Source: Bacillota bacterium (GTDB taxonomy: Bacteria; Bacillota_I; Bacilli_A; RF39; UBA660). Taken from it: DNA of 64,000 bases. The notes beneath the pieces are model-generated. The model made no database searches. It saw nothing but the letters and a program-made list of their open reading frames with translations, and was not told the DNA's origin. Below are positions 3,391 through 58,606 of this stretch, piece by piece. The stretch lies in contig SVAL01000004.1 in assembly GCA_015059405.1 (NCBI GenBank), forward strand, positions 25,817 to 89,816, given 5' to 3'. Both the position numbers and the translations under genes were made by a program. Numbering within the stretch: the stretch's first letter is position 1; each line of letters begins with the position of its first letter.

Positions 3391-3876
3391 ATGAAGCCGG
3401 TGATACATATGTATTCAAAAAAACTCATATGCGATATCTTAGAATATATAGATAATAATATTAATAAAGATATATCTATAGATGAATTATCTAACATCTT
3501 CTTCTTTGATAAATACTATATAATGAAACTTTTTAAAAAAGAACTAAATATAACCATCATTAACTATATCAATAGTATGCGTATATATAATTGCCTTTTA
3601 GATTTTAAATATGATAATCAAATAATAAGAATAGCTTTAAATAATGGCTTTAACTCCTTAGAGTATTTTTCAGAAACATTCAAAAATATCATAAAAGTAT
3701 CCCCAAGAGTTTATAAAAATTTTATAAAAAGAAATGACAAATTATCCCTTGAAAAAATAATAAATATTAGAATAAGTTTATCTAATCTTCAATATTTAAA
3801 AGATAGAATAACTGCATATAAAAACAATAAAAAACCAGAAAAAGCACAAATTAAAACACTTACTATTTTCAAATAA
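3391..3876 (+). CDS. AraC-family HTH transcriptional regulator (small)
   Basis: Two helix-turn-helix units: ISIDELSNIFFFDKYYIMKLFKKELNITIINYINSMRI and IIRIALNNGFNSLEYFSETFKNIIKVSPRVYKN. The real start may be the ATG at 3409 (GGTGA upstream), because TATAAT at 3386-3391 overlaps the first ATG. Confidence 0.75.
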   Translation: MKPVIHMYSKKLICDILEYIDNNINKDISIDELSNIFFFDKYYIMKLFKKELNITIINYINSMRIYNCLLDFKYDNQIIRIALNNGFNSLEYFSETFKNIIKVSPRVYKNFIKRNDKLSLEKIINIRISLSNLQYLKDRITAYKNNKKPEKAQIKTLTIFK

Positions 3877-33685: not shown

Positions 33686-33788
33686 ATTATCACCAAATTA
33701 ATTATATCAAAAACAAGTCCATATTTTACACAATAAACATAACTTTACGCAAAAACAATAATAAAATTAACAATAAATTTACATATAA

Positions 33789-33797
33789 TGATATAAT
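33789..33797 (+). promoter_or_regulatory. Candidate extended -10 element (TGaTATAAT) for the plus-strand four-gene cassette
   Basis: TG at 33789-33790 and TATAAT at 33792-33797, about 25 nt upstream of the ATG at 33822 with GAGGTG between. The -35 is poor (TTAACA at 19-nt spacing). Confidence 0.35.
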
Positions 33798-33821
33798 ATA
33801 AATAATAGATGAGGTGTTGTT

Positions 33822-35552
33822 ATGGCTGATAGTACAGTATATATGAGTGCCGCTAACTTATATGGTATTGAAGACAACCTTGGACAGTTAGCAAAAAACA
33901 TTGGTAACGTATCTATAAATGTAGACCAAGTAGATACAAAAGTTAATAAAGTTACTGATAGTGTAAAAACAATTGAAGATGAAATAAAAAACTTCATGGT
34001 TGAAATTCGCGGAACTACTATTGTTTCAAATGCTAAACAATCTATCATGATGTCTCAAGAAGAACTTAATAAACAATATGGACACTATGATAATGTTAGA
34101 AGAAAAATAAATGGTATCTTCCAAGCAACAGATATTAATGCTGTTAGAAAATCAACTATCGAAAACATAAGTGAACAAGTAATAATTGATACTCCAAATT
34201 ATTGGCTTGCTCCTGCCCTAGTAAGTTTATGTGCTTGGTTAACTGATAATCAAGATCTTGCAACTAGAGCGTTAAAAGAAGCCATGAATAGAGATGATGA
34301 AAAAACAAGTTTATTATTCTGTTTAATACATTTACGTGCTAATCGTTATGATACAGCATTAAAATGGTTAACAAGATATTTAGAAATGCAAGATCCAGCT
34401 AAAATGGAAAGTAAAATAATAACTGTTTTAGATGCCATCACAAACGGAAGTTTTGGAGTAGACGCCAAAGAAATATGTCTTCAAAAAATAGAATCATGGA
34501 TTAAAGAATTATCTTCTCAACCAGGATATAAAGAAATCCAAATAGATAGATGGACTACTTATATAAATAGTCTTATTAATCCAAAAACAAATGATGAATT
34601 TGACTTTATTGCTAAATACACATCAGAACTAGATCGTGTAAATAAAATACTTGCTGTATCTAATTCTAGAAGAAATATACTTATTGAACTAAAAAATATT
34701 ATTAAAGAAGAACAAAACTTAAATGTATCTACTACCAATCAAATAGATAAATTAATTAATATGTTAGTATTTAATTATGAAAATGATGAATTAGAACTAA
34801 AAAAAGATATAGCTAAAAATAAACTTATTATTGAAGAAAATGGTAATGTTACTAAAGCTACAGAAAGATTTAAAGAAACTGAACTAGCTTTCCAAAAATC
34901 AATTGATTTCTATTCACAACTAACTAATATAACTTTAGAATATAAAAGTACTAAACCTACTATTAATACTAGAAAAATGGCTCTAGCATTATCTAAAGAT
35001 TGGATAAGTGAATCATATAATAATATTAGTAAAAATTTCGCAAACAATGATCTTAATATTGATATAAAAATAGATACATGGAATGGTACTACTAATAATG
35101 GTCAAAACGAAAAAGAATTATTAGAAGATTTAAATAATCATATTGATAAAGAAACTCATAATGACATATATGGAAAACCATTAGTAGATATTAAAATTAT
35201 TGGTGCAACAATCCTAGGAGTAATCATAATGGCAATTCTTATGGTTACTGTAAAACAACCATTACTCGCACTAGTAGTATTTATTGGTATTCTTATATTA
35301 GATGCTTATGTTTTTTATATAAATTATAGTGAAAGACAAGATAAAATTAAAAAAAGAGAAAGAAAAAAAGAAAATGCTAAATATATATTATTAAATACAA
35401 TTGCTGAAATAGTAGACTTTAACTTTATCTGTAAAGATAATGAAGAAACACATAATCAAATTAATACATTCTTAAATTCTTTAGACTATCGTAATTATAT
35501 TAAAGGGCAAGATCAAAAAAGAAATATAGAAGTAGGAGGTAACAATGGATAA
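33822..35552 (+). CDS. Unknown 576-aa helical protein with a C-terminal two-helix membrane hairpin (cassette gene 1)
   Basis: No family recognised. N-terminal heptad-like region. Helical-repeat-like block NYWLAPALVSLCAWLTDNQDLATRALKEAMNRDDEKTSLLFCLIHLRANRYDTALKWLTRYLEMQDP. Two adjacent hydrophobic helices at about aa 457-502 (IIGATILGVIIMAILMVTV / LLALVVFIGILILDAYVFYINY), followed by a K/R-rich stretch. Confidence 0.8.
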   Translation: MADSTVYMSAANLYGIEDNLGQLAKNIGNVSINVDQVDTKVNKVTDSVKTIEDEIKNFMVEIRGTTIVSNAKQSIMMSQEELNKQYGHYDNVRRKINGIFQATDINAVRKSTIENISEQVIIDTPNYWLAPALVSLCAWLTDNQDLATRALKEAMNRDDEKTSLLFCLIHLRANRYDTALKWLTRYLEMQDPAKMESKIITVLDAITNGSFGVDAKEICLQKIESWIKELSSQPGYKEIQIDRWTTYINSLINPKTNDEFDFIAKYTSELDRVNKILAVSNSRRNILIELKNIIKEEQNLNVSTTNQIDKLINMLVFNYENDELELKKDIAKNKLIIEENGNVTKATERFKETELAFQKSIDFYSQLTNITLEYKSTKPTINTRKMALALSKDWISESYNNISKNFANNDLNIDIKIDTWNGTTNNGQNEKELLEDLNNHIDKETHNDIYGKPLVDIKIIGATILGVIIMAILMVTVKQPLLALVVFIGILILDAYVFYINYSERQDKIKKRERKKENAKYILLNTIAEIVDFNFICKDNEETHNQINTFLNSLDYRNYIKGQDQKRNIEVGGNNG

Positions 35553-35739
35553 TAATCAAGATTTGAATTTCTTAAATCAAAATAACAACCAAGAACTATT
35601 TAAACAAATTGATCAAGAAATGAAAGAAAAAGAAAAAATAGAAAATCCAAATACAACAAATGATGAATTTATTAAAAGCCTACCAGATTGGGATCTACCT
35701 CCCCTATATGAAAAAGTAAGGAGAGTGAATAGACAATGA
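35545..35739 (+). CDS. Unknown 64-aa N/Q/E-rich protein (cassette gene 2)
   Basis: AGGAGG RBS. The ATG overlaps the gene-1 stop (ATGGATAA). C-terminal proline motif LPDWDLPPLYEKVRR. Confidence 0.6.
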   Translation: MDNNQDLNFLNQNNNQELFKQIDQEMKEKEKIENPNTTNDEFIKSLPDWDLPPLYEKVRRVNRQ

Positions 35740-36167
35740 CATATTATGAATGGATTGATTATTTCTACTCTTTACAAAAAGCACCTATTACAGAAGATGC
35801 AATCAATAAGATTAATAATAGTACTATAGATTATAAAGGAAATATTAAAGTTAGATTTCTAAATCAAATAGTTAAATTAATTAATATAAGATTAAATAAT
35901 GCTTTAGATAATTTCTTGTTAAAAACAAAAACATTAATTCAAGATAAAAATGTATTAAGTATTGAAATTAATGATTTAAAAAAAGAAATAATATTTGCAA
36001 GACAACTAGCTTCTACAAAACATTTTGATGAAGATGTAACAAAACAATTATTAAAAAGTATAGATGGTTTTGGAGAAGAAATGAATAATTCTATCAAAGC
36101 AAGATATGCAAATTGTAATAATAATGAAATAGTTATGTTAATAAATAATATTGACTTAAATGCTTAG
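35736..36167 (+). CDS. Unknown 143-aa helical protein (cassette gene 3)
   Basis: ATGA start/stop overlap with gene 2. AAGGAGAG RBS. No motif recognised. Confidence 0.65.
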   Translation: MTYYEWIDYFYSLQKAPITEDAINKINNSTIDYKGNIKVRFLNQIVKLINIRLNNALDNFLLKTKTLIQDKNVLSIEINDLKKEIIFARQLASTKHFDEDVTKQLLKSIDGFGEEMNNSIKARYANCNNNEIVMLINNIDLNA

Positions 36168-36176
36168 GAGGAAAAT

Positions 36177-37754
36177 ATGAATTATAATGAAACAAAACAA
36201 TTATTAACTCAATATTTACTAGCAAGAATTCCTTTTATTGGAATTAATACCATTGAAAAAGGAAGAGCACTAGAATTATTAAGTGAAATATCTAAAGAAA
36301 CTAATATGAATATGAAAGTTCATTCAATGTCCAAAGGATTTACTAATCTAACTACTGGAGAAGTATATAGTAATGAAAAATTAATGATGGGCGCACTTGA
36401 TTTTATCGTAGAAGAATTAAAAACAAGTGAAAATCAAATATATATATTAAGTGATGTATCAGAACTTGATACAGAAACATTCACAGCTAGATATTTAGTA
36501 GATATAACTAACCTAGCTGAACAAAAATCATCAAGTGTAATAGTAATTACTGCTGCCCCTATTTGGGTACAATTACAACGTCAAGGAATGTCTATAGATC
36601 TAGAACTTCCTAATGAAGAAGAACTATTTAATATTATTGTTGAAAATATAAGACCATATCAAAATCAAATTCAAATTGGATGGGATATAAATGACGTTAA
36701 AGAAGCAGCTAATATATTACTTGGAATTAGTAAAATAGAAGTTAAAAACGTAATTGCATCACTTATTGCTAAAGGAAGTTTAACTAAAGAAGACTTAGTT
36801 GATTTAAAATTTGCTAAAGATAGTCTATTCTCTAATATAAATGGATTAGAAAAAATATCAGTAGATGAAGATATAGCTTATGGTGGACTAGAAGGATTAA
36901 AGAAATGGCTTGATGAAAAAGAAAAACTTCTTACTCCAGAAAAAAGAGAAGAAATGAAAAAAAGAGGTATTAGACCTCCAAGAGGAATTCTTTTAATGGG
37001 AGTTCCTGGATGTGGAAAAAGTTTATCAGCAAAAGCTATAGCTGCTCGTTGGAAAAGACCATTATATAGATTAGACTTTGCTACAATTCAAGGTCGTTAT
37101 GTTGGACAAAGTGAACAACAATTAAAAGAAGCTTTTGAAACAGCAGAACATGTATCTCCTTGTATATTATGGATAGATGAAATTGAAAAAGGATTATCTG
37201 GTGGTAGTGGTGATTCTAGTGGTGTTACAACTCGTCTTATCGGACAATTCCTATTCTGGTTACAAGAATGTCAAAAAGATGTATTTATAATCGCAACAGC
37301 TAATAACGTTAAAGAATTACCTGCAGAATTATTACGTAAAGGTAGATTTGATGAAATGTTCTTCGTTGATTTACCAAACCAAGGTGAAAGAAAAGAAATT
37401 ATTACTCTATATATCGAAAGATATTTAGGTGTTGAAGCAACAGATGAATTTGTACAAAAACTAGTTAAGTTAACTGAAAACTATAGTGGTTCTGATATTG
37501 AATCTATTCTAAGAGATTTAGCTTATAGAACTATTGCAGGTGTTGTTGAATTATCAGAAGAAACAGTATACGCTGCATTTAAAGATAGTGTATCTATGTA
37601 CCAAACTAATAAAGAAAAAATTGAAGATATTAGATCTTGGGCTAAAGATAGAACAATACATGCCTCTAAAAAAGATGAAGTTGAAACAACTACAGAAACT
37701 AAACCTCAAACACTTTCATCAAATAATAGTGTTGAAGATTTAGATTTAATTTAA
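36177..37754 (+). CDS. AAA+ ATPase of the classic AAA clade with a degenerate N-terminal AAA-like domain (Ycf46-like architecture; cassette gene 4)
   Basis: Walker A GVPGCGKS (aa 275-282), Walker B ILWIDEIE, VGQSEQQLKEAF, sensor-1 region IIATANN, and the Arg-finger region LLRKGRFDEMFFVDLP. The N-terminal roughly 260 aa keep IYILSDVSELD and VIVITAAP remnants but have no P-loop. This layout is what I remember for cyanobacterial/plastid Ycf46. Confidence 0.85.
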   Translation: MNYNETKQLLTQYLLARIPFIGINTIEKGRALELLSEISKETNMNMKVHSMSKGFTNLTTGEVYSNEKLMMGALDFIVEELKTSENQIYILSDVSELDTETFTARYLVDITNLAEQKSSSVIVITAAPIWVQLQRQGMSIDLELPNEEELFNIIVENIRPYQNQIQIGWDINDVKEAANILLGISKIEVKNVIASLIAKGSLTKEDLVDLKFAKDSLFSNINGLEKISVDEDIAYGGLEGLKKWLDEKEKLLTPEKREEMKKRGIRPPRGILLMGVPGCGKSLSAKAIAARWKRPLYRLDFATIQGRYVGQSEQQLKEAFETAEHVSPCILWIDEIEKGLSGGSGDSSGVTTRLIGQFLFWLQECQKDVFIIATANNVKELPAELLRKGRFDEMFFVDLPNQGERKEIITLYIERYLGVEATDEFVQKLVKLTENYSGSDIESILRDLAYRTIAGVVELSEETVYAAFKDSVSMYQTNKEKIEDIRSWAKDRTIHASKKDEVETTTETKPQTLSSNNSVEDLDLI

Positions 37755-37772
37755 ATAAAATAAAATAAAAAA

Positions 37773-37798
37773 ATATCTAGTTAAACTAGATATTTTTT
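37773..37798. terminator. Bidirectional terminator after the cassette
   Basis: ATATCTAGT-TAA-ACTAGATAT, flanked by an A-run on the left and a T-run on the right. It lies between the convergent AAA+ gene and the thioredoxin-like gene. Confidence 0.8.
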
Positions 37799-37811
37799 AT
37801 TGCCTTTATAT

Positions 37812-38357
37812 TTATTCTTGTCTTGCTTTTACTACTATTACTATACCAATAACTAAAATAACACCTGCAATAATTGCAACAACTACACCATTTGGTTCAT
37901 TATTTTCAAACTTAAAATTAGCAATTACATCTCTTGCAGTAGTAACCCTACTATCTTCATCTTTTTCATATTCTTTTATTATACTATTTAAAATGTCATC
38001 ATTATCTCCTTCAGAATAACCATTTAAAGTATAGTCCCCAATAATAATATAAGGAACACCACTAGTAGTTTCATTATAAGCTTTCGCAACAGCTTCCATT
38101 AAAGCAGTATTTTCTTCACTCTTCCATACTTCAAATTTAACTAAATCAAAATAATCCCCATATTCTTCTTCTAAAGATTCAAAATATTGAAATGAAGCTG
38201 CACAATATCCACAACCATCTCCATAAAATTCATAAATTTTAATAGGTTCTTTCTTTACTTCTTCTTTTTCATTTTCTTTTTCTTCAGCAAATACAAAACT
38301 AGGAACTATAGTTATAATAAATAATAATATAAATAAACTACTTAAAAACTTCTTCAT
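37812..38357 (-). CDS. Secreted or membrane-tethered thioredoxin-fold protein (CGYC)
   Basis: Signal peptide, IYEFYGDGCGYCAASF CxxC box, GVPYIIIG (cis-Pro loop), and a C-terminal TM anchor. Confidence 0.7.
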   Translation of the reverse strand: MKKFLSSLFILLFIITIVPSFVFAEEKENEKEEVKKEPIKIYEFYGDGCGYCAASFQYFESLEEEYGDYFDLVKFEVWKSEENTALMEAVAKAYNETTSGVPYIIIGDYTLNGYSEGDNDDILNSIIKEYEKDEDSRVTTARDVIANFKFENNEPNGVVVAIIAGVILVIGIVIVVKARQE

Positions 38358-38415
38358 CTTCTACCTCCATACAACTAATATCATAACACAAAAAAAATAA
38401 ATAAAGCAATATACC

Positions 38416-38928
38416 CTATCTTGCTTTATTTATTACATTATCCATAACATTATCAAATACTATATAAATAGAATTAGATATATTAGTAATAAACTTACTA
38501 TTTATATTAAAACCATTTTTTATTTTATAATCATATATTGTCTTACTAGCTTTAGTACCTCTATTTATATTTTCATATTCTAGTAATATTTGATCTAAAA
38601 TCTCTTTTTTACTAGTCTCTCCAAATCCAATAAAAGATTTATCACCAACTACAATATATGGCACACCTGAAACATTATCCCCTAATGCTTTACCAACTTC
38701 CATCATTAATTTAGAATTATCTTGGTTATACCATACTTCTAATTTTACTAAATCAAAATAGTTACCATACTCTTCTTCTATATAGTCAAACCATACAAAA
38801 GAATTAGTACAATGTGGACATCCATTTCCATAAAACTCATATATTAAAACAGGAGAAGCTGCATCAACAATCATATTAGGTACAAATATTAATACTAAAA
38901 TAATTAAATAAAAATATAATTTCTTCAT
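38416..38928 (-). CDS. Secreted thioredoxin-fold protein (CPHC), tandem paralogue
   Basis: Signal peptide, IYEFYGNGCPHCTNSF, GVPYIVVG. No C-terminal TM helix. Confidence 0.7.
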   Translation of the reverse strand: MKKLYFYLIILVLIFVPNMIVDAASPVLIYEFYGNGCPHCTNSFVWFDYIEEEYGNYFDLVKLEVWYNQDNSKLMMEVGKALGDNVSGVPYIVVGDKSFIGFGETSKKEILDQILLEYENINRGTKASKTIYDYKIKNGFNINSKFITNISNSIYIVFDNVMDNVINKAR

Positions 38929-38977
38929 ATCTTTCTACCTCTATATGATTATAACATATAAATCAATATAATTTTAA

Positions 38978-39520
38978 CTATTTAACTTTTTTATTATCTA
39001 AACTATTTATATATAAATTAAACTCTTTAAAACTAAGACCAGGAGTAACTTCAAAAAACTCAGTAACAGGTCTAGCTACTCCACCAGCCATCTCTATATA
39101 ATACTTATTAATCGAATTAATCGCATCTTCTTCATCTTTATAATTATAAATACCTACTCTTTCCCAATTAGGATGTTCAATCTGATAAGTCTTACCATCT
39201 TTTTCATATAAAACAAAACAATGCATATGTTCATCACTATCTAAATCATCAAAATCTTTTCCTTCATATATACGAGTACAAAACATCTTATTAGGAATAT
39301 TAAGTTTATCTAACAATACATGCATTAAATATACTTGTTCTATACAAGTACCTAAACCATGAGACAAAGTCTCTTCAAGTGAAGAGGTACGATATACCCT
39401 TCTAAATTCTTTCATCGTATTTATATGTTCTTTATCTTCATTATCTAACCATCCATACTTAATATTAGATTTCATAAACTCTAATATATCTTCTGGAGTC
39501 TTAATATTATCAATTGTCAT
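38978..39520 (-). CDS. Transglutaminase-like (papain-fold) domain protein
   Basis: The GLGTCIEQVYLMHVLL (Cys), HMHCFVLY (His) and later E/D pattern fits transglutaminase-like cysteine peptidase cores. By-eye call. Confidence 0.5.
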   Translation of the reverse strand: MTIDNIKTPEDILEFMKSNIKYGWLDNEDKEHINTMKEFRRVYRTSSLEETLSHGLGTCIEQVYLMHVLLDKLNIPNKMFCTRIYEGKDFDDLDSDEHMHCFVLYEKDGKTYQIEHPNWERVGIYNYKDEEDAINSINKYYIEMAGGVARPVTEFFEVTPGLSFKEFNLYINSLDNKKVK

Positions 39521-48996: not shown

Positions 48997-50010
48997 TTAT
49001 ACTAATACAGTTTCTAATAACTCCTCCCATTTTCTTAAAATGGTATCATTATCATATTTAAAACCTATTATTGAATCTTTATACTTCTTCTTATCATTTA
49101 TTATTTCACTAATTCGATCTTTATAAGAAAGCGTATCATCTCTACTTAAAATAATACCATTTTCTTTATCACGAATTTGTTCAAAGACAACTTCAAAATC
49201 TGTAGATATACAAGGAACTCCCACACACATAGCCTCAGTTAAAGCTAATCCCCATGTTTCATTACTACTTAATAAAACACTATAATCACACTGCTTAACA
49301 ATCTTATGAGGATTATCTAAAAAACCAAGCCAAACAAAGTTCTCCTTAAATTCAGAGAAACTTTCCATAATTTCTAAAGCTTCAACTTTGTTAAAATTAT
49401 CTCCAACTATAAACCATTTAAAGTCTATATTAGCATCCCTTAAATACTTAGCTAATTCTAACATTCTATTAAAACCTTTATCTCTACAAACCCTAGATAC
49501 TGTAACTAAATTTAATTCTTTAGAAAGTTCTAGTTCACATTCTTCACTTGATTTATCTATTAATGATTCACTATCAATAACATTATAAATATATTTTATT
49601 TTGTCCTTTATATCTTTAAAAGTATTTTTAAGTAACTCACATATCGTATTACTAACTGTAATTACACAGTCTAAGTTCTTACGAAATTTTGTATTTAAAA
49701 TACTATCTGGCAAATTCAATACTTGATGTACCCATAAAATTGTCTTCTTTCTTTTAACATTTTTTGCTGCATCACATAAATGCAACTTCATAGAACATGA
49801 TATGAAATAATCCACTTCTATGTTCTTTTCTTTTTCCACATTAACTACTTTAGCATATTTAGAAAATTCATCTAACATTCCTTGATCGGAATTCTCATTA
49901 ACATACCCGATGTAGATATCAAACCCTTTTAATTTTTTTATCAAACTTAAAAGAGCCATCTCTGTTCCTCCAATGTAAATCAATGGAAAAAAGAACATTA
50001 TTTTTTTCAT
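48997..50010 (-). CDS. Glycosyltransferase family 4 (GT-B, group 1)
   Basis: C-terminal E..G.ALTEAMCVGVPCISTD...I....NG motif typical of GT1/GT4 enzymes. Confidence 0.75.
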   Translation of the reverse strand: MKKIMFFFPLIYIGGTEMALLSLIKKLKGFDIYIGYVNENSDQGMLDEFSKYAKVVNVEKEKNIEVDYFISCSMKLHLCDAAKNVKRKKTILWVHQVLNLPDSILNTKFRKNLDCVITVSNTICELLKNTFKDIKDKIKYIYNVIDSESLIDKSSEECELELSKELNLVTVSRVCRDKGFNRMLELAKYLRDANIDFKWFIVGDNFNKVEALEIMESFSEFKENFVWLGFLDNPHKIVKQCDYSVLLSSNETWGLALTEAMCVGVPCISTDFEVVFEQIRDKENGIILSRDDTLSYKDRISEIINDKKKYKDSIIGFKYDNDTILRKWEELLETVLV

Positions 50011-50211
50011 AATTCACTCCCTATTTCGCAGTGCCTCTTGATAGTAGCACACCCAAAATCTCAAAGTCAATCGACTATCATTCATATAAACTGAATTATG
50101 TCTCAAAAATCCATTATTTCGAATTTAACACTCAATTTTACCTCAAAAATCATCATTTAATTATTAAAAATGCATTACAAGAACAAAAAAAGAATGGTAA
50201 AAACCACTCTT

Positions 50212-50937
50212 TTATAACCAAATATCATCTACTAAAGGTTTAAATCTATATAATTGTGTTGGTCTATATCCTTTATTATCAACCTTATCATTACATTTTT
50301 CTACATACTTAATAATTCTTTTTCTAAAATTAGATTTATCTACTTGTTTATCCTTTACTAATTCATAAACTATTCTAACATCTTCTAAAGTAAACTCTTT
50401 TGGCATGAACTTAAACATAATATCCGAACTATCAAGCATCGTTCTTAGTCTCTTATAACTAACTAGTATTTCAAGTAAAGTCTTTTCAATACTAACATCA
50501 TCTACATAAATATTATGAACATAATCAACATTTCTATCACTAAATCTTTCAACAGTTTTATATTCATACATATTATTACCAAACTTAATTAAAGAATTAT
50601 TACTTATACTAAAATCAATTAATTTATATTCACTAGATAAATTATTAATATTTTCTATATTAGTAACACTCAAAAAAACAATATCAATACTATCATTAAA
50701 ATATTTCTTATCTCCTAACGCAAATACCTGTTCTAAATGAAAGATATCAGAATTAATAATACTAGATATATAATTCTTAATAAAACCTTTTAAACCAGAT
50801 CCATCATCGTAATTTATACTAGGTAAAGTATTATTATTCTTAACTAATAATTTTAATTTCTTATTATCATTTTTTCTAATATTATTACTAGACTCAGTAT
50901 CTAATACAAATAAACAACTAACTAAATTAATCTTCAT
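50212..50937 (-). CDS. NrtR-like regulator: degenerate Nudix-like N-domain plus C-terminal winged helix
   Basis: C-terminal FTLEDVRIVYELVKDKQVDKSNFRKRIIKYVEK...GYRPTQLYRF matches the NrtR winged-helix signature (F.L..L...YE......DK.NFR.K.........RPA.LYRF) as I recall it. No intact Nudix box is seen. Confidence 0.6.
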   Translation of the reverse strand: MKINLVSCLFVLDTESSNNIRKNDNKKLKLLVKNNNTLPSINYDDGSGLKGFIKNYISSIINSDIFHLEQVFALGDKKYFNDSIDIVFLSVTNIENINNLSSEYKLIDFSISNNSLIKFGNNMYEYKTVERFSDRNVDYVHNIYVDDVSIEKTLLEILVSYKRLRTMLDSSDIMFKFMPKEFTLEDVRIVYELVKDKQVDKSNFRKRIIKYVEKCNDKVDNKGYRPTQLYRFKPLVDDIWL

Positions 50938-51010
50938 AAACTACCTCACTAAATAGTATATCAATATATTGCATATAGTATACCACACTATAAGTAAAAT
51001 AAAAAGATAA

Positions 51011-51991
51011 CTACTTAGTTATCTTCATATATATTTCATTAAATTTATCTATATTTTCATAATACAATAAAAACTCTTTTATCATTGACTTAGTACCATC
51101 TATATAATTATTTTCTTTTTTATTATTCTTAGAAAACATATAATTTAACCATTGTAACTTACCATTTAAACAAGAAAATAAACAACTTCTAAAATCATCT
51201 TTTATCTTACCATAACTATTTAAATAACTTCTTAAATACTCTTCATAAAAACTATAATTTATTTTTTTATTTATTCTAGAAAAAGTAAATGCACTTTCAC
51301 ATAAACAACATGTTGGATTAGAAAGTCCAGTCGCATCAAAATCTATTAAAAACATTTTATCTTTATCCCATAAAATATTTAATAATTTATAATCATTATG
51401 ACTAATACATAAATTACTCTTTATATCTTTTAAATTAGAATTACACATATTAACTATTTCTTTTAATTTATCTAAATTATCACTAATTAAATTATAAAGA
51501 TCAATATCTTTCTTCTTAACTATCTTTAACTGTTTATCAAAATCTATATTAATATGTTTATAAAAACAAGTTAAACTACTAGAAATATTTAATTTATGAA
51601 TCTTACTTTGAGTAGTTGCTAAAGTAGAAATATGTTTTAAAGTTATTTCCTTTTCTTCTATCGGTCTACTAATAGAATAATCATATACTACATAATAATG
51701 TTTCTTAAAAAATATAAAACTATTATCATTAACCATTATCGGTAAAATTGTCTTTATACCATTATCATTTAATACTTTACTTATTCTTATTTGTTCTTTT
51801 CTTTTTCTTAAATAATAATAATTCTTAATCGCATCCAAAGAAAACTCTTTAACTACATAAAAACCTTTATCAGTATTAACTTTATATACTTTGTTTTGAC
51901 TTCCATTTAAAATAGATACATCTAATATTTCATATTCTCCATATCTTTTTAAAACATTTTTTAATTTATTTAAAACACTTTTATTAACCAT
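51011..51991 (-). CDS. Phosphotransferase enzyme family protein (APH/choline-kinase/CotS-like)
   Basis: Brenner motif ISHNDYKLLNILW and the IDFD metal-binding motif. N-terminal nucleotide-binding lysine region YKVNTDKGFYVVKEF. Confidence 0.75.
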   Translation of the reverse strand: MVNKSVLNKLKNVLKRYGEYEILDVSILNGSQNKVYKVNTDKGFYVVKEFSLDAIKNYYYLRKRKEQIRISKVLNDNGIKTILPIMVNDNSFIFFKKHYYVVYDYSISRPIEEKEITLKHISTLATTQSKIHKLNISSSLTCFYKHINIDFDKQLKIVKKKDIDLYNLISDNLDKLKEIVNMCNSNLKDIKSNLCISHNDYKLLNILWDKDKMFLIDFDATGLSNPTCCLCESAFTFSRINKKINYSFYEEYLRSYLNSYGKIKDDFRSCLFSCLNGKLQWLNYMFSKNNKKENNYIDGTKSMIKEFLLYYENIDKFNEIYMKITK

Positions 51992-53121
51992 TACTCCACC
52001 TCATAATCCTTACACTTAAGTGGTTTATATTTAATAAAAGCACTTATAAATACAAAGAATACAGCTATATATATCATTACTTTTAAATCTTCAACAAAGA
52101 AATAACAAATTATTAAAATAATACTTCTAAATACACTTAATACCAATTCATAAACTAAATTATAATTGGAATACTCAAACTTTTTACTTAATGAATACAT
52201 CTCTTTTGAAATAGATAATTCATACATCTTAGTAGCTATACCTTCTAAGAAAGCTATTAAAACTAAAACATAAGTAGTAAAACTTACCTTTAATAAATAA
52301 ACAATAACCATAAATATAATACTTAAAGATAAATAATTAGTCTTCTTATCATTAATCTTTTTACCATAAAAATATGCAAAAACTATAGTAGATAAATTAG
52401 TTAATAAATTCATGATTCCTATTGTTTGATAATTATCTTTTACATATATAAATAAATATAAAGAAAATAAAAATTTAATAACATTTATACTTTCATAAGC
52501 ACCAAATATATATAAATTATTAATTGGAATTTTCTTAATCGTTTTAATTAAACTAATCTTTGTATCATTCTTTTCATGTTCAAATTTAAGTTTATATAAA
52601 GGAAATAAACTAAATAAAAATAATAACATCGATATTAAAGTTAAAACCTCTATACTTATAAAATCCAAAAATAAAGCCCCTACATAAGAAGAAATAATTA
52701 ATGCTACTTGATTAACTATACTAATTAAAGAATATGAATTAGATATATCTTTCTTATGTATTACTTTTAAATTATAGAATCTTCTTGATAACCAATATTC
52801 AAGTCGATATATCGCATAAAAAAACGATAATATAATTATATAAAAACTACTATAAGATATCTGTGTTAATAAATACTGCACAAGTACAAAAGAAAATATT
52901 CCTGTTAAAGCTAAAAGACGATTACTATACTTTTTAGCTATATAAATACTAGGATAAACTAAAAGTACAATAAATAAATTTACTATTAAATAATATAGAA
53001 TTACTTCTTTTAAAGAATATCCAAATTTATATAAAATAATAGGAATAAATACTTCTATTAAATTTCTAGAAAACGTAGATAAAAATACATATAAATTAAA
53101 TTTCTTTTGATTACTATCCAT
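51991..53121 (-). CDS. Polytopic membrane protein, MFS-like
   Basis: About 10-12 predicted TM helices. Its stop overlaps the start of the downstream kinase-like gene. Confidence 0.5.
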   Translation of the reverse strand: MDSNQKKFNLYVFLSTFSRNLIEVFIPIILYKFGYSLKEVILYYLIVNLFIVLLVYPSIYIAKKYSNRLLALTGIFSFVLVQYLLTQISYSSFYIIILSFFYAIYRLEYWLSRRFYNLKVIHKKDISNSYSLISIVNQVALIISSYVGALFLDFISIEVLTLISMLLFLFSLFPLYKLKFEHEKNDTKISLIKTIKKIPINNLYIFGAYESINVIKFLFSLYLFIYVKDNYQTIGIMNLLTNLSTIVFAYFYGKKINDKKTNYLSLSIIFMVIVYLLKVSFTTYVLVLIAFLEGIATKMYELSISKEMYSLSKKFEYSNYNLVYELVLSVFRSIILIICYFFVEDLKVMIYIAVFFVFISAFIKYKPLKCKDYEVE

Positions 53122-53184
53122 CTTACCACTATCCTATCATCTTAATTATAGCATAACAAAAATAAAAAACCCACAATACGTGGA

Positions 53185-54276
53185 TTAATTACTCTTCTTT
53201 ATGTCAATTACTACATATTCTGAATTATGTGATGTCCTAATAGGATAACCCCATCCTGCTACACCACTAGATACAATCACATCCATATTATCAAATCTTC
53301 CATAACCATAAGATAAATCAGCAGTATGAAATAATTTTATAAACATTTCTATTGGAAATATTTGTCCTCCATGAGTATGTCCAGATACAATTAAATCTAT
53401 TCCAAAATCTATATTTTCTAAGTATTCAACCGGTTGATGATCTACCATAATAAGATAATTATCTTTTGATACATCTAAATATGTATCAATATCTTTTCTT
53501 CCCATACTATAATCATTACGCCCAGCAATAACTATATTACTATTAATAGGCATATAATTATCATTTAAAATATAAATATTATTAGTAGTAATTGCTTCAT
53601 TTAATTCATCATAACTATACTTTCTATTCATATTATATTGTTGTTCATCATGATTTCCATATACAAAATAAATACCATATTTATTCTTTATACTACCAAA
53701 AACTTTAAATATATATTCCATCTCTTCTTTAGTAGTACCCTCATCAACTATATCTCCACCAAGAATTACAACATCTGCACTAACTTCATCTAGTCTCTTT
53801 TTTAATTTATCTAAATTAGACTTCTTAAAAATATCTCCATAATGTGAATCAGTAAGTAATAAAACCCTTATATCTTCTCCTATTTCCTTATCAGTATAAA
53901 TAGTATATTTTGTTTCTACTATATTTATCATATTAATAAATCCATATCCTAAAACAATAATAGATATCATCAAAGGTAAAAGACAAAGTTTATATATATT
54001 TATAATTTTTTTATTCTTAATAAACTTTTTAAATATTAAATATATTAAATCTATAATTAAAGATATACATATAAAATGCATAAAGAAGACACCAATAATA
54101 CTAAATAAATTAATACTTAATAAAGTAAAAATAATAACTAATAAAATAAGAATTCTTTTTTTCTTTAAAATATCTTTATTAAAAACAGAAATAATTCTAT
54201 TAATTAATCTATAATAATAAAAACCAATCCCAAATAATAATAAAAATAACAAAAATAATATTAATATATATAACAT
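53185..54276 (-). CDS. Membrane-anchored metallophosphoesterase (calcineurin-like)
   Basis: LLLTDSHYG, LGGDIVDE, GNHD and SGHTHGGQ motifs, after about 3 N-terminal TM helices. Confidence 0.85.
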   Translation of the reverse strand: MLYILILFLLFLLLFGIGFYYYRLINRIISVFNKDILKKKRILILLVIIFTLLSINLFSIIGVFFMHFICISLIIDLIYLIFKKFIKNKKIINIYKLCLLPLMISIIVLGYGFINMINIVETKYTIYTDKEIGEDIRVLLLTDSHYGDIFKKSNLDKLKKRLDEVSADVVILGGDIVDEGTTKEEMEYIFKVFGSIKNKYGIYFVYGNHDEQQYNMNRKYSYDELNEAITTNNIYILNDNYMPINSNIVIAGRNDYSMGRKDIDTYLDVSKDNYLIMVDHQPVEYLENIDFGIDLIVSGHTHGGQIFPIEMFIKLFHTADLSYGYGRFDNMDVIVSSGVAGWGYPIRTSHNSEYVVIDIKKSN

Positions 54277-54316
54277 AAAATCACCTATAATTATATTATA
54301 TCACTAAAAAATAGTA

Positions 54317-54946
54317 TCATTCGATACTATTATTTTTTTTCTTAAAATAAGAAACAGTAAATATAACTATTACAATAAATACAATACTTATAATTAATCT
54401 AATATATAAAGAATTAATATCTTTAGAAATAACAGAATCATTTACTTTCGCAAGTTCAGTAGTACTAAATTGAATATTAATACCATCTTCTAAAGAATCC
54501 CATTTATATACATTATTATCCACACTTTTACTATTACTACGTATAACTTTTTTATCAGTCTTAAAATAAACTTCGGTATTATAATTACTACAATAATAAT
54601 CTCCTTCAGTTTTTATAAGAATGTAATCATCTTCTTTAATAATATATACATCTTCAAAACAAGTATTAATAAGAGGAGATTTTATTAATTCACTTCCCAT
54701 ATCATAAGAATAAATCTTTTCATTCTTATCATTAGTTTTATACATATAAGAATTATTTTCATCTATTTCTAAATACTTACTACCACTTTCATATTTAATT
54801 AAATTTCTTTCATCTTCTTTACTTATATTAGAAATAATTAATTCTTCACTAAATTTATCATCTTCATAAGTAAGAGTATATTTACTAGTACAACCACTAA
54901 TTAAAAATAACATTATAAATATAAAAATTAATTTAAATCTTTTCAT
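54317..54946 (-). CDS. Lipoprotein with a C-terminal TM helix, unknown function
   Basis: Lipobox LFLISGC at residues 13-19. C-terminal hydrophobic helix. Confidence 0.55.
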   Translation of the reverse strand: MKRFKLIFIFIMLFLISGCTSKYTLTYEDDKFSEELIISNISKEDERNLIKYESGSKYLEIDENNSYMYKTNDKNEKIYSYDMGSELIKSPLINTCFEDVYIIKEDDYILIKTEGDYYCSNYNTEVYFKTDKKVIRSNSKSVDNNVYKWDSLEDGINIQFSTTELAKVNDSVISKDINSLYIRLIISIVFIVIVIFTVSYFKKKNNSIE

Positions 54947-54964
54947 ATTAACCTCCTACTTATA

Positions 54965-55978
54965 TTAATAATAACCAATTATATAACCAAATGGATCAGA
55001 ACGTTCTGATGGAAAAGTATAAAATTTATAAATAGAACCATATACATTATATATAACTGTTTTATCTTTTATATAATTATTTCTATTTTTAATATCCGAA
55101 GGACTTGTAAGAACTTTACCATTTACTTCTATTTTACAAATATCCCCAGTATTACTATTCATATCACATTTTCTTTTATTACAAAACCAACAATCATGTT
55201 CAACTATATTAGATGGCATAGTTCTATTACCATTAACCAAAACATCTTTAACAGCAGCTAGTATTTCTGGAGTATAACTACCTGTATCCATATGTTTTGC
55301 TGCATTAGCAAACCAACCACTAGTTCTAACATAATTATATAGACCAGTTGCTCCAGTTCCATACTTTTCTTTAGAAGCACGTTCAAATAAATTAGCCATT
55401 AATGATGCCTCAGCTGCCGCACCATTTACACTTCCTTGTTCTGCCATACATACACGTGCTAATGCTACTAATTGCAAATCTGTTAAATTATATTTTGTAG
55501 AAGAAAACTTTTCACCACTAACACTATTATTATTACCATTTGCATTTTCTAATCTTGATTGTTCACGAAGTTCTTCAAAAGCCTTTCTCTCAGCTTCATA
55601 ATCTTTCTTTTCTTTTTCTATTCTTTGCTTTTCTAACTGTCTTTCAGCTGCTTCTAATGCTCTAAAACTAGCAATAGTACTACTATTAGCATTAGTCCAA
55701 CAAGAACCAACACTATAAGATTGTTGATTCAAAAGATTTAAAAGTAAATTAACAAATGTAGGTACAAAAAACACAGAAACAGCCGCAATAGTTCTTCCAA
55801 TAATCTTCTTTATATCCAAACTATAATTAGTATCACTAGAAGTAACCATTTTAAAAACATCTATACCCATTAATATAATTAAAATAATAGGTACAATTAT
55901 ACTAATAATATTAATTATTTCTTTTATTAAAAATATAATACTTAAAAAACTAGCTTTTTCACAAATATCTAAATACAT
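54965..55978 (-). CDS. Membrane protein with a coiled coil and a SleB/CwlJ-like (Hydrolase_2-like) C-terminal domain
   Basis: Three N-terminal TM helices and a coiled coil (EAAERQLEKQRIEKEKKDYEAERKAFEELREQ). LVALARVCMAEQGSVNGAAAEASLMANLFER resembles the L.AR.I.AEA.GE...G..AV..V..NR core of spore-cortex-lytic-type hydrolases. Weak by-eye call. Confidence 0.4.
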   Translation of the reverse strand: MYLDICEKASFLSIIFLIKEIINIISIIVPIILIILMGIDVFKMVTSSDTNYSLDIKKIIGRTIAAVSVFFVPTFVNLLLNLLNQQSYSVGSCWTNANSSTIASFRALEAAERQLEKQRIEKEKKDYEAERKAFEELREQSRLENANGNNNSVSGEKFSSTKYNLTDLQLVALARVCMAEQGSVNGAAAEASLMANLFERASKEKYGTGATGLYNYVRTSGWFANAAKHMDTGSYTPEILAAVKDVLVNGNRTMPSNIVEHDCWFCNKRKCDMNSNTGDICKIEVNGKVLTSPSDIKNRNNYIKDKTVIYNVYGSIYKFYTFPSERSDPFGYIIGYY

Positions 55979-57514: not shown

Positions 57515-58606
57515 ATGAAATATTTTTTTACCAGTGAATCAGTAACTGAAGGTCACCCAGATAAAATGTGTGATAAAATAGCTGATAAAATTCTTGATAG
57601 TGCACTGAAGCAAGATAAAAATTCTAAAATGGCAGTAGAAGCAACTATTAAAGATGATTTAATTTTAATTTACGGAGAAGCAAAAACTAATGCAAAATTA
57701 AACTATGAAAAAATCGCAAAAGAAGTTGTAAAAGAAATTGGTTATGAAGAACAGTTCCAAGTAATAACAAAAATAAGTACACAATCAAGTGAAATTAATA
57801 ATGCCGTACAAAAAGATAAAATATGTGCAGGAGATCAAGGTATAATGTTTGGATATGCTACAAATGAAACAGATACATTTATGCCAATGCCAATATATTA
57901 TGCTCATGAACTAGCTAAGCAACTAACAAAAGTAAGAAGAGAAGATAAAAACTCTCCTCTAAAACCAGATGGAAAAACACAAGTAACTGTTGAATATGAA
58001 GATAATAAACCTATAAGGATAGATACTATTATCGTATCTAGTCAACATACAAAAGAAATAACACAAGAAGAATTAGAAAAATATATAAAAGAAAACGTTA
58101 TAGATAAAATAATTAAAAAAGAATTAATTGATAAAAACACAAAAATACTTATCAACACAAGTGGTTCATTCACAATAGGTGGTCCATTTGGAGACAGTGG
58201 TACAACAGGTAGAAAAATAGTTGTTGATACTTATGGAGGATTCTCTAAAGTTGGTGGTGGATGTTTCTCAAGTAAAGATCCATCTAAAGTAGATAGGAGT
58301 GCTGCATACTATGCAAGATTTGTTGCAAAAAATATTGTTGCCCATAACTTCTGTGATAGATGTGAAATACAACTATCTTATGCAATTGGAAAAGAATATC
58401 CAATATCTATTCATATAGATACATTTGCAACAGAAAAGAAACCACTAAAAGAAATACATAAATATGTAGAAGAAAACTTTAACTTCTCAGTAGATAACAT
58501 AATAAAAGAATTAGATCTACAAAAACCAATATATTATAACCTAGCAGCATATGGACACTTTGGTAGAAAAGATCTAAATCTAACATGGGAACAAATAAAA
58601 GATTAA
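57515..58606 (+). CDS. metK: S-adenosylmethionine synthetase
   Basis: FTSESVTEGHPDKMCDKIAD, GDQGIMFGYA, GGPFGDSGTTGRKI and GGGCFSSKDPSKVDRSAAY motifs. At 363 aa it is at the short end for MetK. Confidence 0.95.
   Translation: MKYFFTSESVTEGHPDKMCDKIADKILDSALKQDKNSKMAVEATIKDDLILIYGEAKTNAKLNYEKIAKEVVKEIGYEEQFQVITKISTQSSEINNAVQKDKICAGDQGIMFGYATNETDTFMPMPIYYAHELAKQLTKVRREDKNSPLKPDGKTQVTVEYEDNKPIRIDTIIVSSQHTKEITQEELEKYIKENVIDKIIKKELIDKNTKILINTSGSFTIGGPFGDSGTTGRKIVVDTYGGFSKVGGGCFSSKDPSKVDRSAAYYARFVAKNIVAHNFCDRCEIQLSYAIGKEYPISIHIDTFATEKKPLKEIHKYVEENFNFSVDNIIKELDLQKPIYYNLAAYGHFGRKDLNLTWEQIKD

Follow-up and report, generated by a model that had tools for sequence, protein, structure and literature searches.

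A conserved and horizontally mobile operon family around a Ycf46-like AAA+ ATPase, represented by a four-gene cassette in a Bacillota genome

A 64,000-nucleotide stretch of contig SVAL01000004.1 from a Bacillota bacterium (referred to here as the window, at its full length) carries a compact cassette of four plus-strand genes, g1 to g4. This cassette is the minimal form, lacking a fifth gene referred to as g0, of a conserved and horizontally mobile operon family of four to five genes that is undescribed in the libraries and literature searched. The gene content, strict co-occurrence and mobility of the family, the domain make-up of its ATPase g4, a fusion of g1 with g2 and the nesting of toxin genes in relatives were established directly by comparison of the loci. 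The preferred reading, which is tentative and held with somewhat less than even confidence, is that the operon encodes an AAA+ machine, anchored in the membrane, that acts on protein clients in the context of microbial conflict.

Only g4 is recognisable among the four cassette proteins. The cassette had been singled out in an earlier note made from the sequence alone, from which g0, the g2-g1 fusion of a sister clade and the toxin- and HerA-extended forms were absent. The four plus-strand open reading frames (ORFs) that it had placed amid minus-strand genes are all present, as follows.

33822-35552 (+): g1, an ORF of 576 amino acids; predicted all-alpha cytoplasmic body with a C-terminal two-helix membrane anchor, from an uncharacterised family
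35545-35739 (+): g2, an ORF of 64 amino acids; variable disordered N-terminal part and conserved C-terminal peptide
35736-36167 (+): g3, an ORF of 143 amino acids; small, uncharacterised and translationally coupled to g2
36177-37754 (+): g4, an ORF of 525 amino acids; AAA+ ATPase

Conservation, distribution and mobility

Homologues of g1 define 75 loci, 70 from species-representative genomes and 5 from metagenome contigs, and a g4-type ATPase lies 0.6-1 kb downstream of g1 in 67 of them; loci without it are mostly contig ends, and one has an IS110 insertion. In the reverse direction, loci recovered with the N-terminal domain of g4 contain g1 in 75 of 77 cases, a gene bearing the g2 peptide in 73, g3 in all 77 and g0 in 62. 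A census of 123 non-redundant loci found both g1 and g4 in 115. The possibility that the four genes are unrelated neighbours brought together by an accident of one genome, some of them not real, is refuted by more than 110 non-redundant loci, spread over several phyla, in which the genes recur in unchanged order, and its probability is negligible; beyond the missing annotation of g1 to g3 nothing speaks for it, and conservation is evident in the peptide of g2 and the N-terminus of g3. The self-contained module proposed earlier is thus borne out by its co-occurrence outside the source genome in varied neighbourhoods. As a separate observation, one Bacilli metagenome-assembled genome (MAG), RGIG3080, has g2-g4 at the beginning of another contig (L023, L082), the cassette being apparently split by insertion or assembly, and in L023, L003 and L004 g1 is followed by an unrelated 313-residue membrane protein and an IS110 transposase.

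The distribution of the operon is patchy across at least six phyla. Carriers in Bacillota include Bacilli MAGs, many Clostridia, Veillonella, Selenomonas, Phascolarctobacterium and Enterococcus, and those elsewhere include Brachyspira, Stenotrophomonas, Cupriavidus, Comamonas, Komagataeibacter, Streptomyces, Bifidobacterium and a Chitinispirillia MAG. The operon resides on Komagataeibacter plasmids of 26 kb and 38 kb, where its neighbours are an IS3 element, an integrase and toxin-antitoxin genes. A Comamonas megaplasmid also carries it, and in the Streptococcus satellite phage Javan368 it occupies the accessory end; RefSeq labels all partners as 'hypothetical protein'. In the lineage of the window, the cassette stays beside fhs over a range of g1 identities from 99% to about 46%, and in the Stenotrophomonas rhizophila group it is kept beside a cardiolipin synthase gene. 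Synteny next to fhs in all relatives would, according to the earlier note, have refuted the finding; it holds over deep divergence in the window's lineage and thus applies in part, within that lineage only. The overall picture is one of ancient horizontal spread followed by stable residence.

A PLD-type cardiolipin synthase gene adjoins the cassette in two unrelated phyla, on the same strand and downstream in Stenotrophomonas (L053-L063, about 11.7-13.2 kb) and on the opposite strand in Brachyspira (L034, L035 and L064, about 13-14.5 kb). This adjacency may be due to chance or may reflect a membrane-lipid link.

Such a distribution bears on a first alternative, in which the operon would be an anti-phage system of the abortive-infection type or a plasmid-addiction system, with g1 as a membrane-damaging effector that is held inactive or activated by g4, and with g2 and g3 as sensor or adaptor. 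By analogy with IetAS and SgiAT, a classic AAA+ ATPase would here control a toxic partner. Patchy spread across phyla, residence on small plasmids beside toxin-antitoxin and integrase genes and at the accessory end of a satellite phage, the rapid evolution of the small subunits and the expansion of g1 to three copies in some loci (L069, L073-L075) are all in keeping with this view. The best PADLOC match of g4 is, moreover, IetA (E 2e-31), and SgiA has been described as an antitoxin ATPase of the SpoVK/Ycf46/Vps4 type (PMC10954446).

Several results point away from a defensive role. The IetA match is restricted to the generic AAA core (amino acids 252-491), and g4 scores 81.9 against a cut-off of 510 on the NCBIfam model IteA_antiphage. 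Among the catalogued defence systems of PADLOC-DB v2.0.0, g1, g2 and g3 have zero matches and g4 has generic AAA matches only. The defence-island-like neighbourhoods that the earlier note had proposed to look for were not seen: there was no enrichment among 136 flanking proteins of 28 diverse loci, where housekeeping genes dominate and JetC (1), AbiH (1), PDC-S07 (1) and integrase (2) occur sporadically. A pattern scan of 2.9 million viral contigs did not find g1, and the position of the cassette is stable across whole lineages, namely the Bacilli clade of the window and the S. rhizophila group. On balance, a defence or addiction system is considered improbable, though it is a serious contender.

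The AAA+ ATPase g4

The g4 protein consists of an N-terminal domain followed by a single AAA+ module, with the following features.

36177-36851 (+): N-terminal domain, amino acids 1-225; degenerate AAA-like, without P-loop
36852-37754 (+): linker, active classic-clade AAA+ module (PF00004, E 7e-31), lid and C-terminal tail
36999-37022 (+): Walker A motif GVPGCGKS, amino acids 275-282
37095-37115 (+): pore loop RYVGQSE, amino acids 307-313
37164-37187 (+): Walker B motif ILWIDEIE, amino acids 330-337
37329-37355 (+): arginine-finger region LLRKGRFDE, amino acids 385-393

The assignment to the classic clade, made earlier on the basis of GVPGCGKS, ILWIDEIE and LLRKGRFDE, agrees with the Pfam match to PF00004 at amino acids 271-398 and with an intact set of Walker A, Walker B, YVG pore loop and arginine-finger segments. 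AAA_lid_3 scores 23.7 bits, just below its 27.2-bit cut-off, and the nearest solved structures in the PDB are the substrate-threading D2 domains of VAT and p97 (E 1e-61). Named NCBIfam models are far under their cut-offs, with CDC48 at 132 against 803 and CdvC at 94.5 against 650, in addition to the IteA_antiphage value given above. Judged by its motifs, g4 looks like a working classic AAA+ unfoldase.

The N-terminal 225 residues have no match in Pfam or the PDB by sequence and profile searches, and a genome search with this domain returned cassette loci only. Alignment of the N-half of g4 with its own C-half by hhalign placed 90 columns in register (E 1.7e-4, probability 49%), including the sensor-1 strand, the pairs LQRQGM/LLRKGRFDE and DLELPNEEE/DLPNQGER, and the lid helix. 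The P-loop-less AAA-like domain that had been proposed ahead of the ATPase module is consistent with this alignment, and a degenerate AAA-like domain is a reasonable description of the N-terminal half.

The membrane-anchored protein g1 and its small partners

The g1 family comprises about 860 clusters at 50% identity, nearly all of about 570 amino acids, and none of the 249 homologues retained at 90% clustering is named beyond 'hypothetical protein'. Column conservation was computed over 76 sequences from several phyla, and the features below stand out.

34062-34421 (+): most conserved block of g1, amino acids 81-200 (conservation 0.56-0.69 in the 76-sequence alignment), with the motifs NYWLAPALV (amino acids 126-134), RDDEKTSLLF (157-166) and RYLEMQDP (185-192)
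35196-35321 (+): predicted transmembrane hairpin of g1, amino acids 459-477 and 481-500
35334-35381 (+): K/R cluster of g1 after the hairpin, amino acids 505-520
35668-35736 (+): conserved C-terminal peptide of g2, FIKSLPDWDLPPLYEKVRRVNR

AlphaFold2, given 116 sequences, models g1 (predicted local distance difference test, pLDDT, 78; predicted template-modelling score, pTM, 0.68) as all-alpha apart from a small beta-hairpin, with a long coiled coil at the N-terminus, a body of helical repeats and a pair of hydrophobic helices; the second of the pair runs on into a 60-residue helix. The two back-to-back hydrophobic segments and the K/R cluster noticed earlier are thus present, both segments being modelled as helices. 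Across the 76 sequences, the hydrophobicity of the hairpin is kept (mean Kyte-Doolittle values of 2.4 and 1.6) whereas its sequence conservation is low, for which reason a membrane anchor suits the hairpin better than a specific, conserved channel. Since the basic cluster follows the second helix, both termini are probably cytoplasmic, which suggests that both ends of g1 lie within reach of g4.

The earlier impression that g1 resembles no known family or fold has held up. Neither g1 nor g2 nor g3 has a match in Pfam, NCBIfam, PADLOC or PHROGs, and g1 and g3 have no match in the PDB as single sequences or as profiles. Foldseek found no neighbour of the g1 model with E < 0.001 in the PDB or among viral predicted structures, and its output was weak noise of tetratricopeptide repeat (TPR)-solenoid and coiled-coil type, all with E > 0.001 and with template-modelling scores of at most 0.2 relative to the query. 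As a side observation, the loci with three g1 paralogues around one g4-type ATPase come from Lachnospiraceae, Candidatus Avispirillum, Oscillospiraceae and Hungatella hathewayi (L069, L073, L074 and L075); their ATPase is shorter, at about 501-503 amino acids, and the Hungatella locus has a HerA-type ATPase and a 247-residue protein with a toxin-type acidic N-terminus upstream.

Across the family, the N-terminal part of g2 varies and is often a zinc ribbon in Clostridia; a low-complexity linker, from 0 to about 250 residues long, joins it to an invariant peptide at the C-terminus with the consensus [FL]AxGLPxW[DSN][ILV]xPPxxx[VI][RK]R followed by a basic tail. It is accordingly a real gene, and the proline motif at its end, already remarked upon, is conserved across phyla. 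In g3, the invariant residues are Y3 and R52, and W6 is nearly invariant, so that the extreme N-terminus carries both the invariant tyrosine and the nearly invariant tryptophan.

The g2 peptide is fused to the C-terminus of g1 in a clade that is sister to the window's lineage, as well as in the Chitinispirillia MAG. These fusions comprise seven clusters at 90% identity (P0079, P0081, P0084, P0086, P0087, P0092 and P0093; loci L005 and L019) together with L118 (L118:43-429); the fused proteins have 611-620 amino acids and end in PPxW[DE][IL]xPPY, and no separate g2 gene was called there. A Rosetta-stone link between g1 and g2 follows from this arrangement. Programmed frameshifting between g1 and g2, an idea raised by the fused clade, was set aside, as separate and conserved g2 genes are the rule.

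The build of g1 and g2 is relevant to a second alternative, that of membrane maintenance or remodelling, in which g1 would assemble on the inner membrane face into a scaffold or a repair polymer, and g4 would recognise the g2 or g1 C-terminal peptide and disassemble or extract g1. By analogy, the logic would be that of Vps4 with ESCRT-III, of Msp1 or of Pex1/6 with Pex15, and the link to toxin loci would reflect self-protection of the producer's membrane. In the fused clade, g1 ends in a conserved peptide borne by a flexible linker, which resembles the ESCRT-III tails that recruit Vps4; the modelled coiled coil, helical-repeat body and anchor of g1, the vertical stability in the window's lineage, the cardiolipin synthase genes in Stenotrophomonas and Brachyspira, and PAP2 genes in two loci are also compatible with this alternative. 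On the other hand, Pfam, NCBIfam and Foldseek gave no MIT domain and no ESCRT-III, PspA or Snf7 match, the patchy distribution and the carriage on plasmids and a satellite phage would be unusual for a housekeeping system, and the lipid genes adjoin few loci and could do so by chance. Such a role is accordingly rated as unlikely, a little more so than one in defence, though it too is a serious contender.

The fifth gene g0

A fifth conserved gene of about 160 codons, g0, was found in most relatives by clustering of locus proteins. Its product has the pattern C.LG..Y.VH....D....I..H, with AR, Y and EVY further on, and the gene lies immediately 5' of g1 or 3' of g4. In the census of 123 non-redundant loci, g0 lies upstream of g1 in 26 cases, immediately after g4 in 37 and after g4 and inserted genes in 14, and it is missing from 37; the loci without it include the whole Bacilli/'Tenericutes' MAG lineage to which the window belongs, and no g0 occurs anywhere in the window. 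Its homologues form about 800 clusters at 90%, all unnamed or 'hypothetical', with no match in Pfam, NCBIfam or PADLOC, none in the PDB by sequence or profile, and no structural neighbour of the model (pLDDT 67) by Foldseek. Assignment of g0 as a papain-like or NlpC/P60 peptidase was dropped, as the invariant Cys and His are just 8-20 residues apart and no fold match was obtained. In one Clostridia MAG, g0 is directly followed by a gene (L127:6758-10156) for a protein of 1132 amino acids with an AAA_2 domain (Cdc48 subfamily), a classic AAA domain and an M41 (FtsH-type) peptidase domain, in which no membrane domain was detected.

Toxin- and HerA-extended loci

In 14 loci, genes are inserted between g4 and g0, and many of them encode large proteins whose N-terminal region is acidic and holds three invariant [FY][DE]DC motifs. 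These proteins also have their middle region in common, and their C-termini differ. Among these C-termini are one WHH/colicin-DNase nuclease and one glutamine deamidase (Gln_amidase). The next ORF in L044, directly downstream of the cargo gene and overlapping it, encodes Imm74 (49 bits against a cut-off of 27), and one cargo C-terminal domain recurs on a Bacillus protein with a different N-terminus (36.5% identity, E 1e-39). Because of the common N-terminal region, the differing C-termini, the Imm74 gene and the domain shared with the Bacillus protein, the cargo proteins are regarded as polymorphic toxins; the extended relatives show a shared N-terminal region, swapped toxin C-termini and an adjacent immunity gene, as is characteristic of this class. 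A genome-wide search with the toxin N-terminal region returned 8 loci, all 8 of which are cassette loci.

Two further genes lie directly upstream of g1 in the toxin loci. One encodes a HerA/FtsK-type ATPase of about 900 amino acids with intact Walker motifs, in which one ATPase region was recognised and no hydrophobic segment is predicted; the other encodes a zinc-ribbon protein of about 300 amino acids with three predicted membrane helices (ZnR-TM). In one clade of Clostridia and Negativicutes, the operon is thereby framed by a HerA/FtsK-type ATPase gene on one side and toxin and immunity genes on the other. The extended order is ZnR-TM, HerA, g1, g2, g3, g4, toxin, small ORF(s) and g0, with very short gaps, and recurs in contigs of Lachnospiraceae, Oscillospiraceae, Acutalibacteraceae and Phascolarctobacterium; a toxin remnant in Merdibacter (L162) is the exception without the two upstream genes. 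In Mogibacterium, HerA accompanies g0-g4 in the same order. Two extended loci also have a GH3 glycosidase upstream. The first genes of L043 (683-3224) and L044 (230-2286), transcribed in the same direction as the rest of the operon, encode a GH3 (NagZ-like) glycosidase and a zinc-ribbon protein weakly similar to C-type lectins. Such an enzyme, active on the cell wall, would be in keeping with a role in crossing the envelope.

The HerA-type ATPase proved not to be obligately linked to the cassette: of 78 loci with such an ATPase, those of the closest clade alone have g1-g4. Since the HerA module is not confined to the cassette, g1-g4 (with or without g0) are an independent module that was built into a HerA-linked toxin operon in one clade. 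A separate and also apparently undescribed HerA module was observed in Bacillus cereus, B. mobilis, Blautia hominis, Clostridium rectalis and others (L175, L176, L177, L184, L185 and L188), consisting of a zinc-ribbon membrane protein, a HerA/FtsK-type ATPase of about 900 amino acids, an acidic protein of 960-1477 amino acids without a Pfam domain, and a small ORF; one of these large acidic proteins shares its C-terminal domain with a cassette-linked toxin, and at the loci examined for g1-g4 the module stands without them.

Proposed function

The embedding of polymorphic toxin and immunity genes in the operon of one clade suggests that the family as a whole has a role in inter-microbial conflict. 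As the immunity genes come along with the nested toxins, these would be exported antibacterial toxins rather than suicide effectors, which argues against the abortive-infection view discussed above. The earlier note had left a choice between conflict systems and AAA-driven membrane remodelling: the link to conflict is strengthened by the plasmids, the satellite phage and the nested toxin-immunity genes, whereas neither a match to a known defence system nor any ESCRT-III/Vps4 feature was obtained.

From these features we infer the physical contacts, membrane topology and nature of the clients in the following model. The g4 protein would act as a hexameric classic-clade unfoldase whose inactive N-terminal AAA-like ring serves as a docking tier. 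The membrane platform would be provided by g1, with a large helical or TPR-like cytoplasmic body tethered to the inner membrane face by its two-helix hairpin, while g2 would contribute a flexible tail ending in a conserved docking peptide, sometimes built into the g1 C-terminus, and g3 would be the stoichiometric partner of g2. Docking of the g4 hexamer, by way of the inactive N-tier, on g1 and on the pair of g2 and g3 may then allow the machine to engage specific protein clients at the membrane and to unfold, extract or hand them over. Its job would most likely be the preparation or export of protein toxins or of other exported clients.

A bolder version of this proposal takes g0-g4 as the core of a new AAA+-driven pathway deploying proteins across or at the cytoplasmic membrane, in other words an undescribed secretion or toxin-delivery system in which g1 would be the membrane receptor, targeting would be signalled by the [FY][DE]DC repeats and the g2 peptide, and the HerA/FtsK motor would have been recruited in some Clostridia. 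In this form the proposal is speculative and should be regarded as unlikely.

Several observations weigh against a client-handling machine in conflict. No toxin gene stands beside the cassette in the window or in most loci, and ZnR-TM, HerA and a large acidic protein occur without g1-g4 in Bacillus cereus, Blautia hominis and others. Because the HerA module occurs in this way on its own, the toxins may belong to it, with g1-g4 as a neighbour or add-on. A two-helix anchor of poorly conserved sequence is weak evidence for a translocation channel, and an inner-membrane machine alone cannot export from diderms such as Stenotrophomonas or the Negativicutes. Finally, the vertical stability beside fhs in the window's lineage fits a housekeeping role as well as one in conflict.

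Organisation of the locus in the window

The signals that surround the cassette are as follows.

33789-33797 (+): extended -10-like element TGATATAAT upstream of g1, read from the sequence; candidate promoter
33811-33816 (+): ribosome-binding site GAGGTG, 5' of g1
37773-37798: hairpin, an AT-rich palindrome with an A-run and a T-run on its sides, between the convergent g4 and 37812-38357 (-)

Direct reading of the sequence confirmed the tight couplings between the genes: g1 and g2 overlap by ATGGATAA (35545-35552), g2 and g3 overlap by ATGA (35736-35739), and a gap of 9 nucleotides separates g3 from g4, with an AGGAGG that overlaps the g3 stop codon. According to the ORF list for the whole window, nearly all flanking ORFs of at least 100 amino acids are on the minus strand, the plus-strand exceptions being a few short ORFs that mostly overlap longer minus-strand ones, together with 3391-3876 and 57515-58606. 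The cassette is head-on and yet not compositionally foreign, since the GC skew reverses only at 33-38 kb of the window and the GC content is the same as in the flanks, at about 25-28%.

The hairpin said to close the unit is real, with a folding energy of -13 kcal/mol and z = -5.5, none of 200 shuffled sequences folding as well, and it is likely to be a bidirectional terminator. At the other end, the extended -10-like element noted earlier is present and TGATATAAT is a plausible promoter of g1; it stays a candidate because this AT-rich stretch holds no more promoter-like matches than chance predicts (27 found against 34 expected).

Directly downstream of the cassette, at 37812-39520 (-), lie two paralogous small-protein genes whose products have a hydrophobic N-terminus and a CxxC motif (CGYC and CPHC) and are thioredoxin-like by eye, the first also having a hydrophobic C-terminal end; they are followed by a gene for a protein of 180 amino acids with Cys/His motifs. 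Farther away, the GC content falls to 0.19-0.22 at about 50000-55000 of the window, against about 0.25-0.28 elsewhere.

Significance

The g0-g3 families have no family assignment, name or significant structural neighbour, yet they form one strictly conserved operon around an unfolding motor, carried among others by human and animal gut anaerobes, Enterococcus, Stenotrophomonas and Brachyspira. To our knowledge, Ycf46-type ATPases have long been without a known function, and the fixed partners of the present subfamily make this question experimentally tractable. The toxin-immunity pairs and HerA/FtsK ATPase nested in operons of gut Clostridia and Negativicutes may indicate an undescribed way of handling antibacterial toxins. 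Should the operon instead serve phage defence or membrane repair, it would still be a new system.

Comparison with known systems

No description of the operon was found in the literature on Ycf46, AAA+ defence systems or AAA+/HerA toxin secretion, and term searches within a polymorphic-toxin survey (PMC3482391) and a paper on NTP-dependent conflict systems (PMC7159879) gave no sign of it. The system is accordingly taken to lie outside every described kind, with the caveat that its function is read from genomic association alone.

The closest likeness of g4 is to the Ycf46-type ATPases of the COG0464 'SpoVK/Ycf46/Vps4' group, with which it shares a length of about 500-525 amino acids and a non-P-loop N-terminal domain followed by one classic AAA module. 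This two-part layout agrees with the earlier description of g4 as Ycf46-like, and UniProt automatically names the Comamonas orthologue 'Uncharacterized AAA domain-containing protein ycf46'; sequence orthology to plastid or cyanobacterial Ycf46 may exist, with this automatic name as its one support. We know of no established function for Ycf46 itself, so the name gives no mechanism. Over its full length, g4 aligns with an ATPase of the same layout from a Bacillus licheniformis plasmid (32% identity, E 1e-70) and with phrog_8638 (E 1e-89), and no cyanobacteria are among the best 80 genome matches to its N-domain. The g4 N-domain subfamily differs from the B. licheniformis relative in being always accompanied by g1, g2 and g3. 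That distant relative, on the phage-like 205-kb plasmid pBL141-2 (L155; 5944-7617 and 8082-9027), was observed beside DUF1257 and DUF2997 with no g1-like gene, and it may represent the broader Ycf46-like family in another partnership.

With IetAS and SgiAT, which combine an AAA+ ATPase with an S8 protease, the operon has in common a classic-clade AAA+ ATPase in a small, mobile, conflict-linked operon. It differs in the low IteA_antiphage score of g4, and IetAS lacks counterparts of g1, g2 and g3; Pfam detected no peptidase domain, and hence no S8 subtilase partner, in g1, g2, g3 or g0.

In Vps4/CdvC with ESCRT-III, in Msp1 and in Pex1/6 with Pex15, too, the classic AAA+ unfoldase works with a partner bound to the membrane, and a short peptide on a flexible tail does the recruiting; in Pex1/6 the first AAA tier is also inactive. 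Membership of the Vps4/ESCRT-III group is not indicated by Pfam or NCBIfam, which gave no MIT, Snf7 or PspA match and the low CdvC score cited above, and Foldseek assigned the g1 model neither to ESCRT-III, PspA or Pex15 nor to another known fold.

The extended loci are best compared with AAA+-assisted secretion systems. Features that distinguish them from the type VII secretion system (T7SS) are a HerA-type protein with one ATPase region in place of a multi-domain membrane EssC/EccC, and the finding by Pfam of no WXG100 or LXG domain in the four proteins of the window, the cassette proteins of L076 and L077, or the cargo and flanking proteins of the extended loci, whose g1-g4 were not scanned. 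No gene for a phage tail was apparent in the list of flanking families, and the window itself has none of the toxin and HerA extras. In the part of the polymorphic-toxin survey that tabulates toxin trafficking, a FtsK/HerA ATPase is given for the T7SS and a CDC48-like AAA+ protein for Photorhabdus virulence cassettes (PVC) (PMC3482391). Like ESX/T7SS with EccA and PVC/antifeeding prophage (Afp) with its Cdc48-like ATPase, the extended loci join an AAA+ ATPase, a FtsK/HerA-type ATPase, membrane proteins and toxin-immunity pairs, and, as in other AAA+-assisted secretion systems, their cargo genes lie directly downstream of the AAA+ gene.

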